A DNA stretch of 64,000 nt. It comes from Oscillospiraceae bacterium (GTDB taxonomy: Bacteria > Bacillota > Clostridia > Oscillospirales > QAMX01). Location of the stretch: NCBI GenBank assembly GCA_015068345.1, contig SVKS01000002.1, positions 5,569 to 69,568 of the forward strand, in the 5' to 3' direction. Each line of letters opens with the position of its first letter. Within the stretch, counting starts at the first letter, position 1. A program made the translations under genes and the position numbers. The notes below the pieces were generated by a model that did no database searches, was not told the DNA's origin, and saw only the letters and a list, made by a program, of their open reading frames with translations. This document shows, one piece after another, positions 5,800 to 62,434 of this stretch.

Positions 5800-7791
5800 A
5801 TGGATAAAAAGCTCCTTCGCACCTTTGAACCTGTCATTCTTTTATATTTCGTGGTGATGGCAATCTTTGCCTTCATCACCTTTTCGGTTAATTTCTGGCT
5901 GGGTATTGCCGAAGTTGCTTTTACGTTGCTATCCGCCGGCCTCTATCCTGTGGTAATCTCCCGGCGAAAAAAACGCCTGATGAAACTTCTGGAATCCTCC
6001 CTCCTCAGTGCCGATACCCTTTCCAGCAAGAGCATGTTCTCCTTCCCCCTTCCCATGACGGTGGTTCGTTCCCAATCCGGGGAAATCATTTGGTGCAACG
6101 ACAGCTTCAAGGAACTCAATCCCGACCTGCAGGAACTTTTTGACGTTAAATTAACCGACATCATTCCCGGGTTTGAGCTTCGCTGGCTCACCGCCGGAGC
6201 TACCATCTGCCCCTACGACATCGACTACGCCGGCAAAGTATACACCATTTACGGCTCGATTTTTGATGCCGGTGATGCCTCCTCCGACGAGGATGACATG
6301 GTCATTCTCTATTGGCAGGACAAAACCGACCTTCTTACCCTTCAGCGCAGTATCGAGGACAAAAACGTCATTTGTGCCGAAATCGTATTTGACAACTACG
6401 ACGAGGTTATGAATAACCTCTCTGACTCCCGCCGCAGTGAAATCCAGGCGGCGGTGGAAAAAGAACTCTATACCTGGGCCCATCCGGCTGGGGGCGTTCT
6501 CCGGAAGGTAGACCGGGATCGGTTCATCTTTATTTTCGAAGAGAAGCATTTCCGCCATTTTCTGGAAGAAAAATTTTCTATTCGGAAGCAGTTGGCTCAG
6601 AATCCGGTTTTGGCCGATTCCGCCACCACCCTCAGCATTGGTATCGGTCGGGATGGTGACACCCTGCGGGATTCCATGCACAACGCCCGCCTGGCGCTGG
6701 ATATGGCTCTTTCCCGGGGCGGTGACCAGGTGGTGGTTCGTTCCCGACTGAGCTTCGATTTCTATGGCGGCCGGGGCAGCGAATACGAAAAGCGAACCAA
6801 GGTCAAATCCCGCATTATGGCCAACGTTCTGGGCGGTCTCATCCGGGACGCAGGTAGTCTTTACATTATGGGCCACGGCTTTGCCGATAACGACAGTCTG
6901 GGTGCTGCAGTGGGTCTGGTTTGCGCCGGCCGTAAATTCGGCAAAAAGACCTCTATTATCATTGATACCGAAAAAAATAACACCGGTCCTATGCTTGCCA
7001 TGCTTGCTAAGCAGGAGGAATATAAGTCGGTCTTCATCTCCCCGGAGGAAGCCATGGTGGACGCCACCGCCGATTCCCTTTTGATTGTGGTGGATACCAA
7101 CCGGCCCCAGTACGTGGAATCCCCCACGGTTTTGGAATCCTTCAACCGGGTTGCGGTTATCGACCATCATCGCCGTGCCGCCGATTATATCGAGGATGCG
7201 GCAGTCAATATCCATGAACCCTCTGCTTCCTCCACCTGCGAAATCGTGGTGGAACTGCTCCAATATCTGGTCAATCCCAACGAAATCCTCAAGTGCGAGG
7301 CGGTGTGTCTCCTGGCGGGCATTTCGCTGGACACCAAAACCTTCACCCTGAAAACCGGTGTCCGCACCTTCGATGCCGCCTCCTTCCTGCGGCGCATCGG
7401 TGCCGATATGCTGGAAGTCAAGCACCTGTTCCAAAACGACTTCGATAACTACCTTAAGCGAAGCGAACTGATTCGACACACCATTTTCTACGAGCAAATG
7501 CACGCCATCGTCAAAAGCCCCGAATCGGTGGACAGCGTGATTGCGGCCCAGGCCGCCGACGAGCTTCTTTCGGTGGTGGGAGTCCGCGCTTCCTTCGTAC
7601 TCTTCCCCGCCGGCAATCAGATCAGAATTTCTGCCCGGAGCCTTGGGGAAATCAACGTACAACTCATTCTCGAACGACTTGGCGGCGGTGGTCACCTGAC
7701 CGCAGCCGGTTGCCAAATCAATGGGGTCACATTGGATAAAGCCTATGCCATGCTGACCGAAGCCATTGACAACTATACTTCACAAATGTAA
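5800..7791 (+). CDS. gdpP: Cyclic-di-AMP phosphodiesterase GdpP (membrane-anchored PAS/degenerate GGDEF/DHH-DHHA1 protein)
   Basis: ORF 5734..7791. ATG at 5800 (MDKKLL..). Two N-terminal TM helices, DHH motif (VIDHHRR), DHHA1 GGGGH motif. Conserved gdpP-rplI-dnaB synteny as in B. subtilis yybT-rplI-dnaC. Confidence 0.85.
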   Translation: MDKKLLRTFEPVILLYFVVMAIFAFITFSVNFWLGIAEVAFTLLSAGLYPVVISRRKKRLMKLLESSLLSADTLSSKSMFSFPLPMTVVRSQSGEIIWCNDSFKELNPDLQELFDVKLTDIIPGFELRWLTAGATICPYDIDYAGKVYTIYGSIFDAGDASSDEDDMVILYWQDKTDLLTLQRSIEDKNVICAEIVFDNYDEVMNNLSDSRRSEIQAAVEKELYTWAHPAGGVLRKVDRDRFIFIFEEKHFRHFLEEKFSIRKQLAQNPVLADSATTLSIGIGRDGDTLRDSMHNARLALDMALSRGGDQVVVRSRLSFDFYGGRGSEYEKRTKVKSRIMANVLGGLIRDAGSLYIMGHGFADNDSLGAAVGLVCAGRKFGKKTSIIIDTEKNNTGPMLAMLAKQEEYKSVFISPEEAMVDATADSLLIVVDTNRPQYVESPTVLESFNRVAVIDHHRRAADYIEDAAVNIHEPSASSTCEIVVELLQYLVNPNEILKCEAVCLLAGISLDTKTFTLKTGVRTFDAASFLRRIGADMLEVKHLFQNDFDNYLKRSELIRHTIFYEQMHAIVKSPESVDSVIAAQAADELLSVVGVRASFVLFPAGNQIRISARSLGEINVQLILERLGGGGHLTAAGCQINGVTLDKAYAMLTEAIDNYTSQM

Positions 7792-8282: not shown

Positions 8283-9641
8283 ATGGAAAGTGAACTGATT
8301 GGTCGAAAGGTACCCTACAGTGTTGTCGCCGAACAGTCGGTGCTGGGTGCCATGCTCATCGACCCCATAAAATGCGTACCGGAGATTGTCAGTCTCCTGA
8401 AGGCAGAGGATTTCTATGTCCCGGAAAATCGCACGATTTTCGAGACTCTCTTTGGCATGTTCAATTTCAATCTTCCCATCGACTCGGTCACCCTGACCAA
8501 TGAACTGCAACGCAACGGTTCCTTTGATGAAATGGGAGGGCAATCCTATCTGGCCCAGATTCTTTCCACAACACCCACCTCGGCAAACTTTCGGGAATAC
8601 GCCAAGATCGTCAAGGAAAAGTCGATCCTGCGCCGTCTGGCGGAGGTCACCGGGGATATTTATAACAAGGTCATGGCCGGTGAAAGCGATGTGGAATCTC
8701 TGATTGAATCGGCAGAGCAGGGAATCTACTCCCTGCGCTACAATTCTGCCGGGGATGGGCTGGTGCACATCCGCTCGGTTATTCAGAGCACCTATGCCCA
8801 CTTTGAACTGGTGGAAAAGAACGGGGGTAAGCTCCCCGGTCTTTCCAGCGGCTTCGAATCGCTGGACCGGGTTCTCACCGGTCTCAACAACTCCGATATG
8901 CTTATCGTCGCCGCCCGACCGGGTGTCGGTAAAACCTCCTTCGTTCTCAACCTGGCCCTCAATGCCTCCCGCAATGCTCCCAATAAAAAGGTTGCCATCT
9001 TCAGTCTGGAAATGGGCCGGGAACAGCTGGCTATGCGTCTGCTTTCCAGCCAGGCTTTGGTAGAATTCAAGAAACTCCGCACCTGTTCCCTGGAACCGGA
9101 AGAATGGGAGCGGGTTGCCCAATCCACCCAATTGATTTCGGGCACTCAGATCTATATTGACGACACCCCCGATACCACCCCCGGTGAGATCAAGGCCAAA
9201 TGCCGCCGCCTGGGTGACGGATTGGGTATGATCATCATTGACTACCTGCAGCTTCTCAAATCCGGCAAGGGTTTGGATAACCGGGTGCAGGAGGTTGCTG
9301 AAATCTCCCGTGCCCTTAAGATCATGGCCAAGGAGCTCAACGTACCGGTGCTTTGCTGCGCTCAGCTTTCCCGTTCGGTGGAAAGCCGCGACGACAAGCG
9401 TCCCCGTCTTTCCGACCTGCGTGACTCCGGCTCCATTGAGCAGGACGCCGACATCATCATGTTCCTTTCCCACCCGGACGAAAAGGAACCCAACTACGAA
9501 AACACCGTGGATTGCCACATTGCCAAAAACCGTCACGGCGAAACCCAAAAGGTATCCTTCCACTGGATCGGTAAATACTATCGCTTCATGAGCGAGGAAT
9601 CCCGCTTTGACAGTGCCCTTCCTCCGGGCGCCGGGGAATAA
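8283..9641 (+). CDS. dnaB: Replicative DNA helicase (DnaB family; DnaC in B. subtilis nomenclature)
   Basis: 452 aa. N-terminal PYSVVAEQSVLGAML, Walker A ARPGVGKTSF, IIDYLQL, SGSIEQDADI motifs. Synteny after rplI. Confidence 0.95.
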   Translation: MESELIGRKVPYSVVAEQSVLGAMLIDPIKCVPEIVSLLKAEDFYVPENRTIFETLFGMFNFNLPIDSVTLTNELQRNGSFDEMGGQSYLAQILSTTPTSANFREYAKIVKEKSILRRLAEVTGDIYNKVMAGESDVESLIESAEQGIYSLRYNSAGDGLVHIRSVIQSTYAHFELVEKNGGKLPGLSSGFESLDRVLTGLNNSDMLIVAARPGVGKTSFVLNLALNASRNAPNKKVAIFSLEMGREQLAMRLLSSQALVEFKKLRTCSLEPEEWERVAQSTQLISGTQIYIDDTPDTTPGEIKAKCRRLGDGLGMIIIDYLQLLKSGKGLDNRVQEVAEISRALKIMAKELNVPVLCCAQLSRSVESRDDKRPRLSDLRDSGSIEQDADIIMFLSHPDEKEPNYENTVDCHIAKNRHGETQKVSFHWIGKYYRFMSEESRFDSALPPGAGE

Positions 9642-9644
9642 GCT

Positions 9645-11000
9645 ATGCTTGCTCCTGCCGCCCAGTTTTTGGAAGCGCTGCCGCTTCCCGCCAATGCCCG
9701 TATTTTGGTGGGATTATCCGGTGGTGCCGACTCCTGCGCCTTGCTTCACTTTTTATCCGTTTTTTTCGGTCCAGACCGCCTGGTCGCCCTCCACGTAAAC
9801 CACGGCATCCGTGGAGAGGAAGCCCTACGGGATGAGGTCTTTGCAAAGAGCTTTGCCGAATCGCTGAACGTTTCCTTTTTTTGTCATCGGTCAGACGTTC
9901 CTTCTCTTGTAAACGCCACCGGTGACTCTCCGGAGGATGCCGCAAGAAAGGTTCGTTACAGGGCTCTTGAAGAGGTTGCCACAGCTCATAACTGTACCCA
10001 TGTAGCCCTGGCCCACCACGGGGATGATTTTGTCGAGACCTTCTTTCTCAATTTGGCCCGTGGCAGTGGCTCCCGTGGACTTTCCTCCATTCCCGCCATT
10101 CGTCCCCTGGGGAATGTGACCGTCATTCGCCCCTTTCTTGGGGTCAGCCGGAAGGAAATTGAGGAATACTGCACCTGTCATCATCTGGAATATGTCACCG
10201 ACAGCACCAACCTGTCGGATGATTATGCCCGGAACAAGCTTCGGCACCATGTGTTGCCTGTCATGCATGAGATCAGCCCCGCCTTCTCAAAAAAACTCCG
10301 GGAAGCCGCTGATTCTCTTTCGGAGGATGACCGTTACCTCACAAGCCTTGCCAAAAGGGAGTATTCTTCCCGTCTGGAGGGGGACACTCTTCTGGCGGCC
10401 GATCTTTTTTCGCTTCCGCCCCCTATTTCTTCCCGGATTTTGAAACTCTATCTTACCGATATGGGGCTTCCCTTCAACCGGGCTATCTATGTCTCTGTCA
10501 AAACCCTATTCGATCCGGGACACAGCCCTTCCGGTACTGTCACCCTTCCCGGTGGTCGTATCCTCACCCGTCGGTATGATCATCTGTTCCCCGGACAGGA
10601 GGCACTTCCCCCCCTTTCCCCGTTGGAGATCTCCCTGGAAAAGGATGGCACCCATCACCTAACCCCTGATCTTTCTCTCGTTGTCACCCATCGCCCCTTC
10701 CCGGGGCCCGCATTCTGTTCCCCAAGCACCATCTACATCCGTCCCCAAACCGGCACGGTCTTGGTTCGTCCCCGGCAAAGCGGTGACGAATGGATGGGTC
10801 CCAATGGTAAAAAGTCGTTAAAACGACTTTTTATAGATCGCAAAATCCCAAAAGCCGAAAGAGAGCGCATTCCGGTTTTGGAAACCGGAGGGAGGGTCAT
10901 ATGCGTCTATCTTCTCGGTCCATCCTTCCCTGAACGGGTGGATAACATTGGCCAGCCGGCCATCTGTCTTGATTTTGTAAAAACAATGGAGGATATCTGA
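9645..11000 (+). CDS. tilS: tRNA(Ile)-lysidine synthase
   Basis: PP-loop SGGADS near the N-terminus. tilS-hpt-ftsH synteny. Confidence 0.9.
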   Translation: MLAPAAQFLEALPLPANARILVGLSGGADSCALLHFLSVFFGPDRLVALHVNHGIRGEEALRDEVFAKSFAESLNVSFFCHRSDVPSLVNATGDSPEDAARKVRYRALEEVATAHNCTHVALAHHGDDFVETFFLNLARGSGSRGLSSIPAIRPLGNVTVIRPFLGVSRKEIEEYCTCHHLEYVTDSTNLSDDYARNKLRHHVLPVMHEISPAFSKKLREAADSLSEDDRYLTSLAKREYSSRLEGDTLLAADLFSLPPPISSRILKLYLTDMGLPFNRAIYVSVKTLFDPGHSPSGTVTLPGGRILTRRYDHLFPGQEALPPLSPLEISLEKDGTHHLTPDLSLVVTHRPFPGPAFCSPSTIYIRPQTGTVLVRPRQSGDEWMGPNGKKSLKRLFIDRKIPKAERERIPVLETGGRVICVYLLGPSFPERVDNIGQPAICLDFVKTMEDI

Positions 11001-27751: not shown

Positions 27752-27825
27752 GCGGGTGTAGTTCAATGGTAGAACATCAGCCTTCCAAGCTGATTGCGTG
27801 GGTTCGATTCCCATCACCCGCTCCA
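27752..27825 (+). tRNA. tRNA-Gly (anticodon UCC)
   Basis: Acceptor GCGGGTG/CACCCGC, D-loop AGTTCAATGGTAG, anticodon loop CTTCCAA, T-loop GGTTCGATTCC, encoded CCA. Confidence 0.9.
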
Positions 27826-27831
27826 TGATAC

Positions 27832-27908
<77 letters not shown>

Positions 27909-27914
27909 CTATAT

Positions 27915-27992
27915 GGCGGATATAGCTCAGTTGGTTAGAGCACTGGATTGTGGTTCCAGGTGTCGTCGGTTCGAGTCCGATTATCCGTCCCA
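27915..27992 (+). tRNA. tRNA-His (anticodon GUG) with G-1
   Basis: Extra 5' G (27915) able to pair with C73. Anticodon loop TTGTGGT, T-loop GGTTCGAGTCC, encoded CCA. Confidence 0.9.
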
Positions 27993-28001
27993 CCAAACGT
28001 G

Positions 28002-28030
28002 CAAACGGGTCGATTTTATCGACCCGTTTG
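28002..28030. other. Perfect 12-13-bp hairpin between tRNA-His and tRNA-Gln (no U-tract)
   Basis: CAAACGGGTCGA(T) TTT (A)TCGACCCGTTTG. Not followed by a T-run on either strand. Confidence 0.6.
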
Positions 28031-28045
28031 CCAAAAACATCACAT

Positions 28046-28122
28046 TGGGATGTAGCCAAGTCGGTAAGGCAACGGACTTTGACTCCGTCATTGCGCAGGT
28101 TCGAGTCCTGCCATCCCAGCCA
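28046..28122 (+). tRNA. tRNA-Gln (anticodon UUG)
   Basis: U1:A72 acceptor TGGGATG/CATCCCA, anticodon loop CTTTGAC, T-loop GGTTCGAGTCC, encoded CCA. Confidence 0.9.
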
Positions 28123-28135
28123 CTTAACTTAATAT

Positions 28136-28211
28136 GATCCATTAGCTCAGCCGGCAGAGCACCTGCCTTTTAAGCAGGGTGTCCCGCGTTCGAATCGCGG
28201 ATGGATCACCA
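28136..28211 (+). tRNA. tRNA-Lys (anticodon UUU)
   Basis: GATCCATTAGCTCAGCCGGCAGAGC.., anticodon loop CTTTTAA, T-loop CGTTCGAATCG, encoded CCA. Confidence 0.9.
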
Positions 28212-47472: not shown

Positions 47473-48489
47473 ATGGACATCTTCGGCACATTGATTGCAC
47501 GTCCGTTTGGATGGGTTTTTTGGGCAATTCTGCAGGTTATCAATAACTACGGTATTGCAATCATTCTCTTTTCTCTGATCGTAAAGATCATTCTTTACCC
47601 CCTTCAGTACAAGAGCAAAAAGGGAATGCTTGCCCAACAGCGCCTCCAGTCCCAGATCAAGGACCTGGAAGCCCGCTATAAAAACGACAGAAACGCCTAT
47701 AACCAGGCCCTCCAGGAGCTTTATACCAAAAACGGAATCAGCCCGATGTCGGGATGCCTTCCCATGCTTCTGATGTTCCCAATCATGATCGGTCTTTACC
47801 GGGTGATCCGCCAGCCCATCACCTACGTGTTTGGCAAGGGCAAGGAACTGACCTCCATCATTGAAGGAATCATCGCCAATAACAGTGAAGCTGCCGCCGT
47901 ACTGCAGCCCATGTTGGAAAATCCCGCCAAGATTGTTGACGAAATTCCCATCATGCGCTATCTGACTGAGGCCGATCCTTACTTCATCGATATGACCTTC
48001 CTGGGTATGGATCTGACCGTTCAGCCCACCCTTTCCTGGAACGTACTTGTTCTTTTGCCCATTATTTCGGGTGTCACTGCCTATCTGATGAGCTATGTCA
48101 ATCAGAAGCTGCAGGAAAAGACCACCGGCGTACAGGTCCAGATGAATGGCAGCAGCAAGTCCCTTCTCTACACCATGCCTCTCCTTTCGGTGGTGATCGG
48201 TTTCACCCTTCCCGCCGGCCTGACTGTCTACTGGATTGCCAACAACATTCTGGGTATTGCCCAGGAATACGTGCTCCAGCTACAGATGCGTAAGATCATC
48301 CGGGTACAGGAAGAGAAAGAAGCAGCTGAGGAAGCGGTTACCCGTGCCCAGCGGGAAGCCGCCATGGAAAAGAACAGAGAAATCCAGAAGCAGATGAACG
48401 CATCCGGAAAGAAAAAGCAAAACAGTTCCAAAAAAACCTACAAGCTCAGCCGTCCGGCGAGAAATGCCAGCGACGACGATGATGATTGA
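47473..48489 (+). CDS. yidC: Membrane protein insertase YidC/SpoIIIJ family
   Basis: Polytopic. KIILYPL..KS.KGM..Q.LQ..I..L, MSGCLPMLLMFPI. Basic C-terminal tail. Confidence 0.9.
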   Translation: MDIFGTLIARPFGWVFWAILQVINNYGIAIILFSLIVKIILYPLQYKSKKGMLAQQRLQSQIKDLEARYKNDRNAYNQALQELYTKNGISPMSGCLPMLLMFPIMIGLYRVIRQPITYVFGKGKELTSIIEGIIANNSEAAAVLQPMLENPAKIVDEIPIMRYLTEADPYFIDMTFLGMDLTVQPTLSWNVLVLLPIISGVTAYLMSYVNQKLQEKTTGVQVQMNGSSKSLLYTMPLLSVVIGFTLPAGLTVYWIANNILGIAQEYVLQLQMRKIIRVQEEKEAAEEAVTRAQREAAMEKNREIQKQMNASGKKKQNSSKKTYKLSRPARNASDDDDD

Positions 48490-52518: not shown

Positions 52519-53223
52519 ATGATCATTGACATTCTCAATCAGGTACTCGCCGAAGCGGGGCTCCATCCCGTGGAGGGGGAAACTGCCGATAAATTCAGAA
52601 AGTTTTCCACACTCCTGTGCGAAAAAAATAAGGTCTTGAACCTGACCGCCATTGAAGAACCCGACTTCATTGCCACCCGGCACTTTGCCGACAGCATCAT
52701 GCTCTTCAAGGAGGACATTCAGGGGGGCAAGCTCATCGACGTGGGTTGCGGCGGCGGTTTCCCGGGAATCCCGGTGAAGCTCTATGCCGATATGCTGGGA
52801 ATTCCCCTGGATTGCACCCTTCTGGACTCCACGGCAAAGAAGATCGCCTTCGTCAACGAGGCGGTGGACGCCCTATCGCTTTCGGGTATCCGGGGTGTTG
52901 CCGGCCGGGCGGAGGAGGAAATCCTCAAGCTGGGTCGGGAAAGCTTCGACATCGGTACCGCCCGGGCGGTTTCGGATATGCGTATTATTTCGGAACTGGT
53001 GCTTCCCTTCCTGAAGGTGGGGGGCGTGTTCTACGCATGGAAAACCGAAAAGGCTATTCCCGAGGTGGAGGAAGCCAAAAAGACGGTGGAGATTCTGGGA
53101 GCCCGGTATGCGGGTCGGGTGGAATATTCCCCCTTCTTCCTGCAAAAGTGCGTGAAAAATGCCCATACTCCCGAAAAATACCCTCGAAAATACGCACAAA
53201 TTGTCAAGAAAAAGCTTGGTTGA
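52519..53223 (+). CDS. rsmG: 16S rRNA (guanine527-N7)-methyltransferase RsmG
   Basis: NLTAI, RHF.DS, SAM motif DVGCGGGFPGIP. mnmE-mnmG-rsmG synteny. Confidence 0.93.
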   Translation: MIIDILNQVLAEAGLHPVEGETADKFRKFSTLLCEKNKVLNLTAIEEPDFIATRHFADSIMLFKEDIQGGKLIDVGCGGGFPGIPVKLYADMLGIPLDCTLLDSTAKKIAFVNEAVDALSLSGIRGVAGRAEEEILKLGRESFDIGTARAVSDMRIISELVLPFLKVGGVFYAWKTEKAIPEVEEAKKTVEILGARYAGRVEYSPFFLQKCVKNAHTPEKYPRKYAQIVKKKLG

Positions 53224-53235
53224 AAATAATTCATA

Positions 53236-53292
53236 AAAAACGGCATTCCTTCGACCGAATCGACTTGGATTCGGCAGGAATGCCGTTTTATC
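53236..53292 (+). terminator. Intrinsic terminator after rsmG
   Basis: AAAACGGCATTCCT / AGGAATGCCGTTTT outer stem enclosing a second short hairpin. Confidence 0.7.
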
Positions 53293-53324
53293 ATATAGGG
53301 GAAGAAGAAAGGGAGTGGTATAAG

Positions 53325-54137
53325 ATGCATGAAAAACAACCAAAAATCCGTCTGATCGCCCAGGAGCGGATCTTTTCCTCCCACCATCAACCCCGGAAGC
53401 TGTTTGATGAAAATGCCCTGGATGAGCTTGCCAAAAGCATTGATGCCATGGGACTTCTCCAGCCCATTACGGTGCGGAAAATTGGCGGCAGATTTGAAAT
53501 TGTCGCCGGGGAGAGGCGCTACCGGGCCTGTCTGAGGGCAGGGCTGGAGGAAATCCCCTGCATAGTAGTGGAAGCCGATCACCGGAGGGCGGAGCTTTTG
53601 GCCCTCACCGAAAATCTCCAGCGACGGGATCTGGATTGCTTTGAGGTGGCGGCGGGACTTGGGCGCATGATCGAGGAATACAGCCTGACCCAGGAGGAAT
53701 GCGCCCGCTACCTGGGAAAAAGTCAGTCGGCCATCGCCAATAAACTGCGGCTTTTGAAGCTGGATAAAAAGATCGTGGCCGAGATTCGCCGCCATGGCCT
53801 CACCGAACGGCACGCCAGGGCCCTTCTCAAGCTTTCCACCGTGGCCGAAATGAAATACGCCATTTCCCGTATGGCCTCCGAGGGTATGAGCGTCAGCCAA
53901 GCCGAAGCCCTGGTGGAAGCCATGGGGGAAGCGATAAAACGGCAGCATGCTACGCCTGCGGAACGCCACCGGGTCTACGTGGTGAAGGATATCCGTCTCT
54001 TTTTCAACAGTGTCACCAAGGCTGTGGATACCATGCGACTTGCCGGGATCCCGGCGGAGGTGGAACGCAGTGAGGAACCGGACAATCTGGTTTTGACGGT
54101 CAGAATTCCCAAAAAGGTCCGGGGGGAGGCCATATAA
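53325..54137 (+). CDS. noc: ParB-family protein, Noc-like (nucleoid occlusion protein)
   Basis: In-frame part of ORF 52746..54137, from ATG 53325. ParB box GERRYRA, HTH QSAIANKLRLLKL, ITERHARAL. The C-terminus KDIRLFFNSV...LVLTVRIPKK parallels recalled B. subtilis Noc (RDTRIAMNTI...IQLTIRIPK). Confidence 0.7.
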   Translation: MHEKQPKIRLIAQERIFSSHHQPRKLFDENALDELAKSIDAMGLLQPITVRKIGGRFEIVAGERRYRACLRAGLEEIPCIVVEADHRRAELLALTENLQRRDLDCFEVAAGLGRMIEEYSLTQEECARYLGKSQSAIANKLRLLKLDKKIVAEIRRHGLTERHARALLKLSTVAEMKYAISRMASEGMSVSQAEALVEAMGEAIKRQHATPAERHRVYVVKDIRLFFNSVTKAVDTMRLAGIPAEVERSEEPDNLVLTVRIPKKVRGEAI

Positions 54138-57362: not shown

Positions 57363-58162
57363 GGAAATATCTCTCCTTTTTCCGGATCCGATTCCTTTCG
57401 GGGCTCCAATACCGGGCGGCGGCCTGGGCAGGGGTTGCCACCCAATTTGCCTGGGGCGGGATGAATATCCTCATGTACCGGGCCTTTTACCGGGCCGGGG
57501 CGGAGAATTTCCCCATGGAATTTGATTCTCTTTCCACCTATATCTGGCTCCAGCAGGCTCTTTTGGCCCTGTTTATGGCCTGGTATTTCGATAACGACAT
57601 TTTTGACAGCATTACCTCCGGCTCCATTTCCTACGAGCTTTGCCGGCCCTGTGACCTCTACACCATGTGGTTTGTCAAGAATATGGCGGTGCGGCTTTCC
57701 CGGGTGGTACTGCGGTGTTTTCCCATTTTGGCGGTGGCGGTCCTTCTGCCAAAACCCTACGGTATGACCCTACCCGGGTCGGTGACGGCGGGTCTACTTT
57801 TCCCGCTTTCGCTCATATTGGGCTTTTTGGTGCTGGTGGCCTTTTCCATGCTCATCTATATCTCGGCTTTCTACACCATCTCCCCCATCGGCATCCGGAT
57901 TTTAGCCACCTCGGTGGTGGAATTCTTCGCCGGGGCGGTGATTCCGATTCCCTTCTTCCCCACCTGGCTCCAACCTATCATGAACGCCCTCCCCTTCGCC
58001 TCCATGCAAAATACCCCCTTTCTCATTTACACCGGTCACGTGGGTGGGCAGGAGGCCATGTGGGCCATATTCCTGCAGGCGGTGTGGTTGGTAGTATTGG
58101 TTGGAATCGGCAAAATATGGATCCGCCGCGCCACCCGCCGGGTGGTTTTACAGGGAGGTTGA
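57359..58162 (+). CDS. ABC-2 family transporter permease (first of pair)
   Basis: 267 aa with about 6 TM segments. Start overlaps the ATPase stop (ATGA). Confidence 0.75.
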   Translation: MRKYLSFFRIRFLSGLQYRAAAWAGVATQFAWGGMNILMYRAFYRAGAENFPMEFDSLSTYIWLQQALLALFMAWYFDNDIFDSITSGSISYELCRPCDLYTMWFVKNMAVRLSRVVLRCFPILAVAVLLPKPYGMTLPGSVTAGLLFPLSLILGFLVLVAFSMLIYISAFYTISPIGIRILATSVVEFFAGAVIPIPFFPTWLQPIMNALPFASMQNTPFLIYTGHVGGQEAMWAIFLQAVWLVVLVGIGKIWIRRATRRVVLQGG

Positions 58163-58166
58163 TTCG

Positions 58167-58943
58167 ATGAAGCTTTATTGCAAATATATTGGTATGCTCT
58201 TTCAGTGCCGGATGCAGTATAAGACCTCCTTCTTCATGACCGCTCTGGGGCAGTTTTTGGTTTCCTTTACCACCTTCATCGGCCTGTATTTTATGTTCGA
58301 CCGGTTTGGGGCGGTGGAGGGATACACCCTGGCGGAGGTGATGATCTGCTTCTCGGTGGTTTTGACCGCCTTTTCCCTGGCGGAATGCTTCGTCCGGGGG
58401 TTTGACGTGTTCCCCCGGCTCATTCGTAGCGGAGACCTGGACCGGATCCTGGTTCGTCCCCGGAGCGTGGTGTTCCAGGTTCTCACCTCCAATATCGACT
58501 TTTCCCGGGTGGGAAGGCTCCTGCAGGCCCTTGTTATGCTGATCTATGCCATCCCCCGGTGCGGGGTGGATTGGACCCCCGACAAGATCCTGACCCTGGT
58601 TTTGATGATGCTTGGAGGGGTGTTGCTCTTTGCCGCCCTTTTCGTGCTTTATGCCGGCATCAGTTTTTTCACCATCGAGGGGTTGGAATTCATGAACATC
58701 TTCACCGATGGCAGCCGGGAATTCGGTAAATACCCCCTTTCGGTTTATGGGGAGGGTGTTTTGAAATTCATGACCTACGTGATCCCCTTCGCCCTGGTGC
58801 AGTATTACCCCTTCCTCTACCTGGTGGGAAGGAGTGACCGGGTGTGGTATATGCTTCTGCCCCTGGCGGCGGGACTCTTTCTGATTCCCTGTGCGATCTT
58901 TTTCCGGGTGGGCCTTCGCAAGTACCAATCCACAGGGTCGTAA
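58167..58943 (+). CDS. ABC-2 family transporter permease (second of pair)
   Basis: ORF 58101..58943. ATG 58167 follows AGGGAGG. About 6 TM segments. Confidence 0.75.
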   Translation: MKLYCKYIGMLFQCRMQYKTSFFMTALGQFLVSFTTFIGLYFMFDRFGAVEGYTLAEVMICFSVVLTAFSLAECFVRGFDVFPRLIRSGDLDRILVRPRSVVFQVLTSNIDFSRVGRLLQALVMLIYAIPRCGVDWTPDKILTLVLMMLGGVLLFAALFVLYAGISFFTIEGLEFMNIFTDGSREFGKYPLSVYGEGVLKFMTYVIPFALVQYYPFLYLVGRSDRVWYMLLPLAAGLFLIPCAIFFRVGLRKYQSTGS

Positions 58944-58957
58944 AGTAACAACAAAAA

Positions 58958-59001
58958 GGACTCTGCTACGGGAATTATCCCGAAAGCAGAGTCTTTTTTT
59001 G
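58958..59001. terminator. Terminator after ABC operon (also downstream of the thiT fragment)
   Basis: GGACTCTGCT / AGCAGAGTC stem followed by TTTTTTT; A-run upstream. Confidence 0.75.
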
Positions 59002-59005
59002 TTCT

Positions 59006-59176
59006 TTATTTCTTTGCCAGTCTCATCACGGCGGGGGTGATCATCAGCATCAGAACCACCGTAATGAGCAGCTCGCCGGCCATGTAGCCGCCGTTATAGA
59101 GGAAGGAATAGAGCCATACGGGGGTTCCCTCCGGTGCGTAGATGTCCCAGATCAGGATGCCGCTGGCAAAGTGGCA
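59006..59176 (-). pseudogene. thiT: Displaced 3' fragment of a thiT (ECF thiamine S-component) gene
   Basis: Encodes ..CHFASGILIWDIYAPEGTPVWLYSFLYNGGYMAGELLITVVLMLMITPAVMRLAKK*, matching the C-terminus of 61630..62193. 59046..59176 is 126/131 identical to 61670..61800. Similarity ends abruptly at 59176. Confidence 0.85.
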
Positions 59177-59529
59177 AGGTCTATAATAAAAACCAAAAAA
59201 ACAAATGAAAAATAATGTAAAAATAGGAATAGTGAACAAAAATTACGAATATTGAGAAGAAAAATATATGAATGTTGCAAATTGCAACCGAAAGAAAAAT
59301 GTGATAAAATGTGGTTGCTGGAAGTTGGCAACCATTTATGGGAAAGTGGCAATTCTAAGGAGGGAAGGAAGTAATTGCCCGATTCCTTTCATTAGCAAGT
59401 TTTTTTCTCCATCCTTATAAAGTGGTAGACAAGATTGTTAGTACTAACGCTATCTTATTTCCGAGTTGGGCTTGATAGTGAAGCTGTAGTATCATCAATA
59501 TTGATAATGCAAAAAAGTAAGGAGTACTT

Positions 59530-60165
59530 ATGGGAAATATGGCAACTAAGAAAATATCTATTTTTTGTATGATTTTCTTTATTCTTTCCTTGATTGGGAG
59601 CCCAGTAGAGGCAACTACTTATGGGGCAAGAGCATATAATAGCAATTCATCTTCTTCTGTTAATTGTGCGGGATATGCTTTTGGATATAATGCTTGGTAT
59701 GGCTTTGATATTTATACGAATTCTAATATTGCAACATGGAATGCTTGTGATTCCCCAAGCGAACTGATGTCAGCAGTAAAGCAACAGATCAATGCCTACA
59801 TAGAAGCAAGAGCAACACTAAACAATATTCTCAGTAAAAAGAGTAGCTATTCTTACACAGTTGTTACTTCCTCACAATATAAAACTGTCTTTAAGTTGGC
59901 TTATCATGATACAGATGGGACAAATGGAATAAGTATAAATGCAGACGGCACAGGTGATAAATTTGATTTCCATTGGAGATTTCTTGCGTCCGATGGCAAA
60001 TGGTGCGAAAAGGTAGGTTATTCTTCATCAAGAATTTGTCCCAATAATGGTGGTACAAATGCAAATGGGATATCTCCTTTTACACTTATTTGGTATATGG
60101 GAACTTCGTCTTCTGGTTACCAATATAATTATCAAGGATATCATTATTTAAGAAGAGATTGGTAA
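59530..60165 (+). CDS. Secreted hypothetical protein (four Cys, N/S/T/G/Y-rich)
   Basis: AAGGAG 5 nt upstream of the ATG. Signal peptide MGNMATKKISIFCMIFFILSLIGSPVEA. Cys in VNCAGYAFG, WNACDSP, GKWCEKV, and SRICPNN. Aromatic tail YQYNYQGYHYLRRDW. Confidence 0.75.
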   Translation: MGNMATKKISIFCMIFFILSLIGSPVEATTYGARAYNSNSSSSVNCAGYAFGYNAWYGFDIYTNSNIATWNACDSPSELMSAVKQQINAYIEARATLNNILSKKSSYSYTVVTSSQYKTVFKLAYHDTDGTNGISINADGTGDKFDFHWRFLASDGKWCEKVGYSSSRICPNNGGTNANGISPFTLIWYMGTSSSGYQYNYQGYHYLRRDW

Positions 60166-60229
60166 TACTTTATTATGCTCATAATGTATAATACAACAGA
60201 AATAGCATTTGGAAAGGGGCAGGGTAAAG

Positions 60230-61564
60230 ATGCTGAAAAAAGGGTATTTATGGATTTCATTCGTCTTAATCACAGGGATCTTTCTGGTCTTTGCGGGATT
60301 TACTAAGAGCAACGTCATTCGGGTAGAATCGGATGACGTGAAGCGAAAAGTGGAAAGTATTACAGATAGTGGGAGTTATTCGTCGGACGACGTTAAAAAG
60401 CTGGAAGAAAGAATTCTCAATCATAAAGCAAAGCTAAAAACAGAGGTTTGGTATGGCGAGGAACTTCTTTCGGATATCCGCTTGAATGTGAATGGAACGT
60501 ATGCAGGCGGGAATATCGGCTACTACTGGCGATTCGTAAAGAATCAAATCGGACACTATCCAACCGAAAACGTCCGAAAAATGACCGACACGAAGGGTAC
60601 ATACTATTACTTGGTTTACCAATTGAATCATGGCGGTCGGCTTTTCCTTTTCAGCCGCGATGGCTTTGGCTATGGGTTCCCTGTTTATATGGAAAAGACG
60701 CTGGCGAAAAAGGATTTTGCGTCGCTTACTGTTGGGGATGATATGGAAAAGGTGGAAAAGATTGACCCGGCGTCGAAAAAAATGCGAGAGGCTTTTGAAA
60801 CAAGCCTTGGGAAAAAGGAGCCAATGGCTTTTATCCGGGATTGCGAAACGCTTGACGCCTATTATCCCTTTACCTCGGTGCACCTCCTTACCGATGGACT
60901 TTTGCTCATTGAATACGACGTGGTGGGAGAAGCGACAGAACGGCACTATGTTGTACGGGACATTCTGTGGAATGAGGAGTTTTTGATGCCGGACTTTGCT
61001 CCGATCTATATGGCAGACTATTATGCGGAAACAGGTATCAAGGTGGAAGCAAAACGTTACCCTATGAAGATACTTGAGCAGGATTATATAGGAGGAGAAA
61101 CCCCGGTTTCCTATGGGAAGATGCCGGAAAAAGAAACCGTTGTCTTGGCAGATGAAATAGAATGGGAAATCTCAATCCGGAACGAGAAAGAAGGGAAAAC
61201 GGAGGAAAGCATTTTGAGTCGCAGGAAGGCAGAGGAGATGGAGCTAAAAACGGTGATTGCTTCAAGATATGAAAAGAACAATCCGCAAGGGTCAATACAG
61301 ACAATCTTTGCACAAGGTATCACTGTTGAGACCTTGCTTCAAAGCATAAAGAGTGAGGGGGCAAAGGGAATAACGGTTCTTGATTCGACCGGAGCGAAGC
61401 ACAATATGGATTTACAGGAGATGGAAGCAGAGGATTGGATAATTGCCTGGGTAGAAAATAAACAATATGCCATGTCAGATAGTAAGACATATGTTGCATT
61501 TGTTAGGGATGGCGGGATGCCCGATCAATATATTGCTTCGGTGGAGTCCATTATGATTCATTGA
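60230..61564 (+). CDS. Membrane-anchored hypothetical protein (single N-terminal TM, large extracytoplasmic part)
   Basis: ORF 60209..61564; ATG 60230 (MLKKGYLWISFVLITGIFLVFAGF..). 444 aa. No motif recognised. Confidence 0.7.
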   Translation: MLKKGYLWISFVLITGIFLVFAGFTKSNVIRVESDDVKRKVESITDSGSYSSDDVKKLEERILNHKAKLKTEVWYGEELLSDIRLNVNGTYAGGNIGYYWRFVKNQIGHYPTENVRKMTDTKGTYYYLVYQLNHGGRLFLFSRDGFGYGFPVYMEKTLAKKDFASLTVGDDMEKVEKIDPASKKMREAFETSLGKKEPMAFIRDCETLDAYYPFTSVHLLTDGLLLIEYDVVGEATERHYVVRDILWNEEFLMPDFAPIYMADYYAETGIKVEAKRYPMKILEQDYIGGETPVSYGKMPEKETVVLADEIEWEISIRNEKEGKTEESILSRRKAEEMELKTVIASRYEKNNPQGSIQTIFAQGITVETLLQSIKSEGAKGITVLDSTGAKHNMDLQEMEAEDWIIAWVENKQYAMSDSKTYVAFVRDGGMPDQYIASVESIMIH

Positions 61565-61589
61565 TATAACATAATGTGCGGCAAAGGCA

Positions 61590-61632
61590 AAAAATTCCCC
61601 CGGATTCCCTGGAATCCGGGGGACGCTTTTTA
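61590..61632. terminator. Bidirectional terminator between island gene and thiT
   Basis: TCCCCCGGATTCC / GGAATCCGGGGGA stem. T-run on the minus strand (AAAAAA 61589..61594 on plus) and CGCTTTTT on the plus strand. Confidence 0.75.
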
Positions 61633-62193
61633 CTTTTTGGCGATTTTCAAAACGGATGGGGCCAAAAGGAGCATCAGAACCACCGTAATGATCAGCTCGC
61701 CGGCCATGTAGCCGCCGTTATAGAGGAAGGAATAGAGCCACACGGGGGTTCCCTCCGGGGCGTACACGTCCCAGATCAGGATGCCGCTGGCAAAGTGGCA
61801 CAGGAAACGGAGAATTACCACCGCCGACCCGGCCAAGGTAGCCGACAGGGCGGGCTTGAGCTTGCCAAAGGGTTTCCGGAACAGGTCCGCAAGGCCCAAT
61901 CCGCCAAATGCCACCACGTAGTCCAGCATGATTACCAGGAAGAAGGCCCAAACGGTGTTGGTGGGGGGCGGGTAGAAGCCCAGCATCATCTGGATCAGGC
62001 TGTAGGCAACCGAGCCGATCAGACCCCATTTGGTGCCAAAGAGCAGGGCAAAGAGGATGATGGGAACCATGCTCCCCAGGGTGATGGACCCGCCGTAGCT
62101 CCAGGCAGGCAGCGGGAGCTTCAGGAAGGAGAGGACGGTGGCAAGGGCCACCAGGACGGCGCCGGTGCAAAGCGCCTTCAGGTTGGTTTTCAT
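61630..62193 (-). CDS. thiT: ECF transporter S component for thiamine (ThiT)
   Basis: 187 aa with 6 TM segments. FLCHFASGILIWDVYAPEG...YSFLYNGGY parallels the recalled L. lactis ThiT FFHFIAGIIFWSQYA...YSLAVNG. Preceded by a TPP riboswitch. Confidence 0.85.
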   Translation of the reverse strand: MKTNLKALCTGAVLVALATVLSFLKLPLPAWSYGGSITLGSMVPIILFALLFGTKWGLIGSVAYSLIQMMLGFYPPPTNTVWAFFLVIMLDYVVAFGGLGLADLFRKPFGKLKPALSATLAGSAVVILRFLCHFASGILIWDVYAPEGTPVWLYSFLYNGGYMAGELIITVVLMLLLAPSVLKIAKK

Positions 62194-62241
62194 GAAAGAA
62201 AAACCCCTTTCAAAATGAGCTTGCCGGCAATGTCCCGAAAA

Positions 62242-62280
62242 TAAAAAACCGCAGAGTCTGCAAAAAAGACTCTGCGGTAA
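62242..62280 (-). terminator. Riboswitch expression-platform terminator upstream of thiT
   Basis: Minus strand ACCGCAGAGTC TTTTTTG CAGACTCTGCGGT followed by TTTTTT, located between the aptamer and the thiT RBS. Confidence 0.8.
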
Positions 62281-62295
62281 AAAATCGGAGCGTTT

Positions 62296-62398
62296 CTGTA
62301 CCGTTTCCTACGCCGGTATTATCCGGATCAGGTCAAAGGGTTCGGGGTGGGCAAAACCCCCCATCTCAGCCAACTCTGGTCAGCACCCCTGCAGCGAA
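62296..62398 (-). promoter_or_regulatory. TPP (THI-box) riboswitch
   Basis: Minus strand reads ..GGGGTGCTGACC..GGCTGAGA....ACCCTTTGACCTGATCCGGATAATACCGGCGTAGGAAA.., matching the TPP aptamer consensus (GGGGUGC, CUGAGA, ACCUGAUCYGGAUAAURCCRGCG). Confidence 0.9.
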
Positions 62399-62434
62399 GC
62401 CATTATAACACAAAAGAAGGCGGTTGTAAATCCC

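Follow-up and report, generated by a model that had tools for sequence, protein, structure and literature searches.

The thiT gene of a rumen Oscillospiraceae/Ruminococcaceae member, which encodes the S component of the ECF thiamine transporter, has its 3' end duplicated around 2.45 kb of other DNA. We conclude that this locus is probably a small genomic islet left by an integrative element of the kind that replaces the end of its target gene, decayed and most likely immobile. The stretch analysed (referred to as the window) is 64 kb of a metagenome-assembled genome (MAG), in which the region bears the GenBank locus tags E7428_00680-90 (proteins MBE6998684-87). In the window, thiT reads through host sequence from 62193 to 61801, continues through imported sequence from 61800 to 61630 and stops at a terminator that is imported as well, with its coding sequence intact. 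The original end of the gene (59176 to 59006) is stranded 2.6 kb away beside the native terminator and is decaying. The parts of the locus that concern thiT are as follows.

58953–58999, no strand assigned: native terminator hairpin, bidirectional, separating the ABC permease gene (plus strand) from the original thiT end (minus strand), an inverted repeat with 15-nt arms that are 93% complementary.
59006–59176, minus strand: copy A, the displaced original 3' end of thiT (56 codons plus stop), a pseudogene fragment matching PF09515; attR-like, with the tail and terminator of the empty-site allele.
59144–59176, no strand assigned: 33-nt block identical to 61768–61800, ending at the breakpoint 59176/59177; not kept in one occupied lineage (L066).
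61630–61800, minus strand: copy B, the element-supplied 3' end that completes thiT, attL-like, as judged from the repeat alignment and the empty-site comparison.
61801–62193, minus strand: host 5' two-thirds of thiT, collinear with empty-site relatives.
62288–62400, minus strand: thiamine pyrophosphate (TPP) riboswitch controlling thiT (RF00059), untouched by the insertion.

Aligning the two thiT segments revealed a direct repeat of 172 nt (59005–59176 and 61629–61800), identical at 151 of 172 positions (88%) and the only long direct repeat reported. Its 21 mismatches fall into two groups, 16 within 59005–59045 and five (59068, 59117, 59135, 59141 and 59143) within the remaining 131 nt. The inner part of the repeat (59046–59176 versus 61670–61800) is identical at 126 of 131 positions, a count that a first-pass annotation had made by hand and that we verified position by position. 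The same annotation described a decay of identity toward the 3' end of the gene. Identity is lower there (25/41 between 59005–59045 and 61629–61669), but the loss is not gradual and takes the form of a sharp switch at 59045/59046. At the outer edge, 59144–59176 matches 61768–61800 over 33 nt with no mismatch, and the similarity ends abruptly at 59176/59177 and at 61800/61801, just as first described. The block has no third copy in the window even when three mismatches are allowed, and shuffles give 0. The intact gene (61630–62193, minus strand) is identified as ThiT by PF09515 (E=5e-36) and by TIGR02357 (116 bits versus a cut-off of 108.45), and the fragment at 59006–59176 matches positions 116–174 of the 177 in the PF09515 profile, which is the C-terminal third. 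The riboswitch upstream scores 69.8 bits with RF00059 against a gathering score of 54.3.

The strongest comparison comes from relatives in which the site is empty. Searching for thiT in one genome per GTDB species identified a Clostridia MAG from buffalo caecum (L001), whose ThiT is 94% identical at the protein level. This genome is collinear with the window on both sides and lacks 59177–61628, and its single thiT has the ABC-2 permease gene immediately after it. The arrangement recurs in another three contigs from this species (L069, L070 and L071), the four empty sites occurring at 87–93% nucleotide identity. In a three-way alignment, the thiT end and the terminator hairpin of the empty site match copy A together with 58953–58999; the last 40 nt of copy B and the hairpin at 61596–61623 are unrelated to them. 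Meanwhile, copy A of one occupied sister lineage (L067) encodes exactly the outgroup tail LMLTPSVMKLAKK. Because the empty-site end and terminator match copy A, and because L067 retains this tail, copy A can be identified as the displaced original end of thiT, and copy B and its terminator as having come with the foreign DNA. The insertion into thiT, and its polarity with 59006–59176 as the original end and the other end supplied by the element, had both been proposed at first reading; the empty sites bear out the former, and the tail and terminator shared by copy A and the empty-site allele bear out the latter. No relative carries two full thiT paralogs.

The insert differs from its surroundings in composition. 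Its G+C content is 0.29 at 59177–59351, 0.35 at 59352–60208 and 0.44–0.45 at 60209–61629, compared with 0.54 in both host flanks and 0.61 in the 5' part of thiT, so that the AT-richness reported between the copies holds (0.29–0.45 versus 0.54–0.61). This low G+C, together with the occurrence of its two genes as a pair at unrelated loci elsewhere, marks the insert as foreign DNA. Its features are listed below.

59177–59529, plus strand: left end of the insert, an AT-rich non-coding leader of 353 nt; its small open reading frames (ORFs) have no Pfam match.
59177–59351, plus strand: module X, the part of the leader common to all occupied lineages, with a G+C content of 0.29.
59282–59310, plus strand: promoter-like site in the leader, TTGCAA-17-TAAAAT, TG-extended.
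59530–60165, plus strand: ORF1, 211 aa, with a signal-peptide-like N-terminus and no family match.
60230–61564, plus strand: ORF2, 444 aa, with an N-terminal membrane helix, an extracytoplasmic body and no family match.
61596–61623, no strand assigned: imported terminator, bidirectional, separating ORF2 from the new end of thiT, with a 12-bp stem and called on both strands; not present at the empty site, and a different hairpin in L009.

ORF1 gave no match in Pfam, PHROG, PADLOC or PDB sequences and at most 14 bits in NCBIfam, far under the cut-off, and its AlphaFold2 model is unusable (predicted local distance difference test, pLDDT, 35). ORF2 likewise has no significant match in Pfam, PHROGs, NCBIfam or PADLOC. 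It belongs to a family of 211 representative homologues at E<=1e-3, which have a short form of ~290 aa and a long one of ~450 aa. The AlphaFold2 model of ORF2 is confident (pLDDT 90), and one domain of ~145 aa resembles the PruR/sulfite-oxidase fold; one homologue (P0014) is fused to a BlaR1-type M56 N-terminal domain. On these grounds ORF2 is predicted to be a membrane-anchored extracytoplasmic protein. Homologues of ORF1 at 61–67% identity adjoin ORF2 homologues in three other loci (L022, L062 and L063), and ORF1 with the long form of ORF2 makes up a conserved two-gene unit in other Clostridia (L062 and L063; also L022). In L062 and L063 the pair sits between PHP and iron-dependent alcohol dehydrogenase (Fe-ADH) genes, with no thiT nearby. 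At an identity of at least 90%, database searches place ORF1 and ORF2 at this chromosomal site and nowhere else.

Comparison of the occupied lineages shows how the insert has fared since its arrival. The lineage of the window is represented by more than 20 contigs from JGI, ENA, NCBI and Logan, which are collinear and at least 99.98% identical, the longest reported reaching 360 kb; the insert is present in all that span the site. Two sister lineages have in common with the window the junction 59176/59177, the leader 59177–59351 and ORF2 (98.5–98.9% identity). The copy-specific base at 59141 is also common to the window, L067 and L009 lineages, except in L066, where copy A has drifted. Because junction, leader, ORF2 and this base are shared across lineages, a single ancestral insertion is indicated. 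L067 and L068 keep the window-type right end and lack ORF1, which was lost by deletion between the imperfect short repeats CATTTATGGGAAAGTGGCA and CATTTGGAAAGGGGCA. The same deletion is found in L009, L010, L011, L066 and L072. Point mutation is also seen, as copy A of L009 and L011 contains a nonsense codon. The insert is inherited vertically and is eroding by deletion, replacement and point mutation.

The replacement concerns the right end. In L009, L010, L011, L066 and L072, unrelated DNA takes the place of everything from ORF2 codon 294 up to the end of thiT. This L009-type right end contains part of the C-terminus of a matrixin-type metalloprotease (HEIGHVLGMGHD...SIMYPY; Peptidase_M10, PF00413, E=4e-7) and a different terminator, and its thiT end is native-like up to the stop codon, where homology stops again. 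Since no deletion can make new sequence, another foreign segment that brought a thiT end of its own must have entered the site, with a later deletion fusing the two. The thiT site has thereby received foreign DNA at least twice. We notice that the boundary of the C-terminal domain of ORF2 (61112–61564, residues 295–444) coincides with the L009 right-end breakpoint at 6617/6618; the short natural homologues P0002, P0009, P0010 and P0013 end at this domain boundary, and the C-terminal domain occurs alone in P0018 and P0025. Separately, a 79-aa protein (P0163) on a 759-nt ENA contig is a fragment of the thiT end; its N-terminus on the element side, MLSAFGQDVN..., diverges ~40 nt past the junction, and it represents either a further rearrangement or a different element using the same junction.

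From this geometry we rather favour site-specific integration, followed by loss of the recombinase, as the best explanation of the scar in thiT. A circular DNA would have recombined with chromosomal thiT in the Campbell fashion. Besides its own last 57 codons of thiT (56 sense codons and the stop), the circle would have brought a promoter, ORF1 and ORF2, and a bidirectional terminator; the recombinase gene would have been lost afterwards. A gene end duplicated around foreign DNA requires a single crossover with a circle that carries this end; a linear double crossover or homology-facilitated illegitimate recombination is excluded, as neither would produce a duplication and both would instead cause sequence to be replaced or deleted. 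A dedicated recombinase is suggested because the homology starts abruptly inside the gene and reaches the stop codon, as it does for e14 and phage 21 in icd. Moreover, two unrelated segments each carry a thiT copy that ends at the stop codon, which argues for elements adapted to the thiT site rather than chance homology. The repeats would then be the attachment (att) sites of that recombinase.

The closest known system is e14 in icd of Escherichia coli, a proven case of site-specific integration in the account that PMC6379469 and PMC13626634 give of it (Hill et al., 1989). In e14 and phage 21, the element carries the last ~55 codons of its target, so that the integrated gene finishes in element DNA and its original end is left behind on the far side as a pseudogene. 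As a control, we compared the icd end of E. coli K-12 with icdC, and found a 165-nt duplicate with 153/165 identical positions, an 11-nt identical block at its abrupt 5' edge and homology through the stop codon. The thiT locus, with 172 nt, 151/172 identities and a 33-nt block, has the same geometry from abrupt start to stop. It also shares with e14 a gene-end duplication around foreign DNA, an intact reading frame and empty sites, but not an internal integrase. Indeed, e14 is 15.2 kb long, keeps intE and xisE and excises on SOS induction, whereas the thiT insert has 2.45 kb and no recombinase or phage genes. The target differs as well, being icd in E. coli and here thiT in a rumen Oscillospiraceae/Ruminococcaceae member.

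Cis-mobilizable elements (CIMEs) are the second comparison; their definition and the scenario of accretion followed by decay are given in PMC5704250. Like the CIMEs derived from integrative and conjugative elements (ICEs) or integrative and mobilizable elements (IMEs) of Firmicutes, for example at the 3' end of fda in Streptococcus thermophilus, the thiT islet has att-like repeats at a gene 3' end and has lost integration and transfer genes, and remnants of another incoming segment that brought a gene end of its own are seen in sister lineages (PMC5704250). In contrast, no cognate ICE or IME of the same specificity is known, and none was found in the collections searched; the thiT repeats far exceed the usual length of CIME att sites, and not all lineages keep them identical. 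The islet is a CIME in structure only, with att-like repeats and no recombination genes. Islands at tRNA and tmRNA 3' ends similarly restore the 3' part of their target and leave a direct-repeat remnant at the distal border, but thiT is protein-coding, and no integrase lies beside the restored gene end. Grounded (defective) prophages also lose mobility genes progressively and keep a few cargo genes and att scars (PMC6379469), whereas nothing in the thiT insert is phage-like, with no PHROG match and none in phage collections.

Several observations weigh against the recombinase step, which we infer from geometry. No cognate integrase or intact parent element was found in the window or in the IMG/VR, phage or plasmid collections, and the survey for a recombinase acting in trans covered the 64-kb window alone of the genome. 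RecA-type recombination within a 131-nt stretch of 96% identity would leave the same footprint. In addition, the 33-nt block, which the first-pass annotation had read as a crossover core, is over-read in this role. At an overall identity of 96% it is not statistically special, and the longest identical run in the repeat is another one, of 48 nt (59069–59116), so that the 33-nt run is by itself no evidence of a crossover core. Copies A and B of L066 differ at three positions inside the block, against the idea of a conserved core. The one candidate recombinant junction, on a sister-lineage contig (L074), crosses over mid-repeat rather than at the boundary, which suggests homologous recombination. 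The informative feature of the repeat is its abrupt outer boundary rather than the 33-nt block.

L074 (ENA ERZ27256764 k141_609707, 1,367 nt) contains at positions 1–260 a junction of the type expected of a circle or a tandem duplication. It runs from 16 nt of right-end terminator flank through a hybrid repeat into the leader and ORF2. On its left side the hybrid repeat shows three bases of the copy-B type, on its right side four of the copy-A type, and the switch lies between 59056 and 59122, in an identical middle of 65 nt. The contig may equally be a low-coverage assembly chimera. For the window lineage, none of seven predicted attP- or attB-type proteins occurs in a collection of 15 billion proteins.

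The searches for mobility genes and relatives of the insert were consistently negative. As had been noted before from the reading frames, no recombinase lies between the repeats: scans against Pfam, PHROG, NCBIfam and PADLOC, which included the small ORFs of the leader, revealed no recombinase, transposase, phage or conjugation gene in the insert. Among the 38 window ORFs scanned against Pfam, none is a recombinase or transposase. The 33-nt block, module X, the copy B tail and the junction have no match in IMG/VR, where alignments of ORF1 and ORF2 found no relative either. Insert DNA and the ORF2 protein matched nothing among phages (50,697 records covered) and plasmids, and the ORF1 protein matched nothing among plasmids. 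With the thiT alignment, IMG/VR yielded three contigs with a full thiT, none with a duplicate or an adjacent integrase. A thiT survey of metagenome_contigs gave relatives at 38–56% identity only, none with a duplicated end, and a protein search with the 56-aa gene end matched the fragment of the window itself and nothing else. We considered a prophage or phage satellite and rejected it, given no PHROG match, no match in phage records and no IMG/VR relatives. An insertion sequence or transposon was also rejected, since there is no transposase, no inverted repeat joins the ends of the insert, and the duplication is a diverged one of 172 nt instead of a short exact target-site duplication.

The strongest alternative needs no dedicated recombinase, and we regard it as unlikely. 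A circularised foreign fragment with a thiT end would have integrated by a RecA-dependent single crossover within ~130–170 nt of homology. The fragment was possibly excised by recombination between repeats in another strain and taken up by transformation or transduction, and the locus would still be gaining and losing segments. A stretch of 131 nt at 96% identity is a sufficient substrate. Copy B is a mosaic of a divergent tail (61630–61669, G+C 0.43) and a host-like part (61670–61800, G+C 0.60), as expected after a homologous excision crossover inside the repeat, and this mosaic fits at least one past homologous exchange. The hybrid crossover of L074 in the 65-nt identical middle and a conversion-like exchange of copy A with copy B in L066 point in the same direction. 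However, this explanation does not account for a thiT copy that extends exactly to the stop codon in two unrelated foreign segments, nor for the one sharp outer boundary found in all occupied lineages. A gene end carried through to the stop codon is the hallmark of elements that integrate without killing the gene, as e14 does, and the first circular donor with a thiT end would still need a source.

A still-functional non-autonomous element seems to us improbable. The islet would here be a true CIME or mini-island that is mobilised in trans or grows by accretion, its integrase being encoded at another place in the genome or arriving with an ICE, IME or phage that has thiT specificity. In the window both repeats are still intact, the 33 nt at their boundary being identical, and the two arrivals of foreign DNA fit the CIME accretion model (PMC5704250). 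The circle- or tandem-type junction of L074 could be taken as a product of such activity, but its mid-repeat crossover is of the homologous type and the contig may be a chimera. We also considered constraint on an att core in copy A. Positions 59118–59178 are unchanged in the window, L067 and L009 lineages, whereas the rest of copy A differs by ~9% (P about 0.01–0.03 for the lack of change between two lineages); four changes in L066 within this segment weaken the argument, and we set it aside. An active element is further disfavoured by the confinement of ORF1 and ORF2 to one site, by the differences between the copies inside the L066 block, and by searches of the collections that yielded no thiT-specific integrase, no parent element and no attP or attB product of the window lineage. 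Of the two possibilities raised at first, a non-autonomous CIME-like element or a decayed remnant, the comparative data favour the remnant. Most likely, the insert no longer moves, and any present-day rearrangement would use homologous recombination between the 172-nt repeats.

In this Oscillospiraceae clade, the 3' end of thiT could be a dedicated landing pad for a family of recombinase-less mini-elements, which would spread and turn over through their gene-end homology alone, using host homologous recombination and circular or tandem intermediates such as L074; we consider this quite improbable. A related question is posed by the 12-mer GGNAAAGNGGCA, found at both repeat ends (59165–59176 and 61789–61800), in the leader (59340–59351) and at the ORF1 deletion junction (60209–60220). 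It might be a recombination signal for an enzyme acting in trans. Allowing up to two mismatches, it is not enriched across the window (10 found versus 6.9 expected), and its recurrence is probably microhomology or chance. An integron-like or tandem-cassette reading of the ORF1 module, in which ORF1 is bounded by GGGAAAGTGGCA and TGGAAAGGGGCA that resemble the boundary 12-mer, was tried and rejected. ORF1 and ORF2 are a conserved pair elsewhere (L022, L062 and L063), the state without ORF1 is a deletion between imperfect short repeats, the 12-mer is not enriched, and no such motif occurs at the L009 right-end breakpoint.

An ancestral tandem duplication of thiT, with one paralogue losing its 5' part and the spacer being old native DNA, draws its sole support from the two thiT-like segments in direct orientation and is very improbable, being ruled out by the empty sites with one thiT and no spacer, by the foreign composition of the spacer, by its genes at unrelated loci elsewhere and by ~20 more distant thiT loci without a second copy. 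An assembly or binning artefact, for which one may cite several short contigs that break inside the repeat, has a negligible chance and is refuted by the same collinear structure assembled independently in more than 20 contigs from the four sources, some above 300 kb.

Beyond the islet, the intergenic spot between the ABC permease gene and copy A is an indel hotspot itself. In L067 and L068, the terminator just outside copy A is interrupted at 58999/59000 by an IS200/IS605-type Y1 transposase gene (7150–7617 in L067, 155 aa, PF01797). In L072, ~1 kb of DNA with 42% G+C (600–1620) separates the permease gene from copy A; it has both terminator variants at its borders and encodes a 154-aa ORF and a 102-aa XRE-type helix-turn-helix protein. 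Upstream of thiT, a strong terminator-like hairpin (62248–62278, minus strand) between the TPP aptamer and the gene start is presumably the expression platform of the riboswitch, and its stem has a 14-nt exact inverted match, GCAGAGTCTTTTTT, to the terminator at 58986–58999. Long antisense ORFs run through the G+C-rich genes, one of 222 aa opposite thiT (61576–62244, plus strand) and one of 301 aa opposite the ABC permease gene (58023–58928, minus strand). The former is called as a gene in contig L019; both are annotation artefacts.

The wider neighbourhood is that of the replication origin. ParB and YidC lie within the window (52746–54137, 47473–48489 and neighbours) with other housekeeping genes, and matching contigs carry annotations for GidB and MnmG (GidA) to the left and, to the right, for DNA polymerase III alpha and the S10 ribosomal operon. 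The islet accordingly lies in a core region that is highly conserved. Five tRNA genes (Gly-TCC, Arg-TCT, His-GTG, Gln-TTG and Lys-TTT) occupy 27752–28211, with no adjoining island among the ORFs scanned. Elsewhere, an IMG/VR contig with a 40%-identical thiT (L058, IMGVR_UViG_3300029195_000071) carries, a few kb from this gene, a diversity-generating retroelement at 8537–10605 (reverse transcriptase, PF00078; bAvd, PF22296; 119-nt, 86%-identical template/variable repeats at 9804–9922 and 10487–10605), which is unrelated to the islet.

In full-text searches of a paper library, we found no paper that describes thiT as an integration or attachment site. What is new is thiT as the target gene; the scar of a gene-end-replacing element is of a known type, and no new mechanism is revealed. 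The overall value is modest and lies in a clean erosion series and in a caveat for the annotation of MAGs, where the 77-aa 'ThiT' fragment is a trap, as is the chimeric end of thiT. The same fragment and chimeric end can serve as a marker that separates lineages of this rumen bacterium. With this locus, the riboswitch-controlled thiT would join the protein-coding attachment sites of gene-end-replacing elements. A natural series at one site, from empty through occupied and ORF1-deleted to right-end-replaced with a second gene end, shows how integrated elements can be worn down to islets of two genes without the target gene losing its function.

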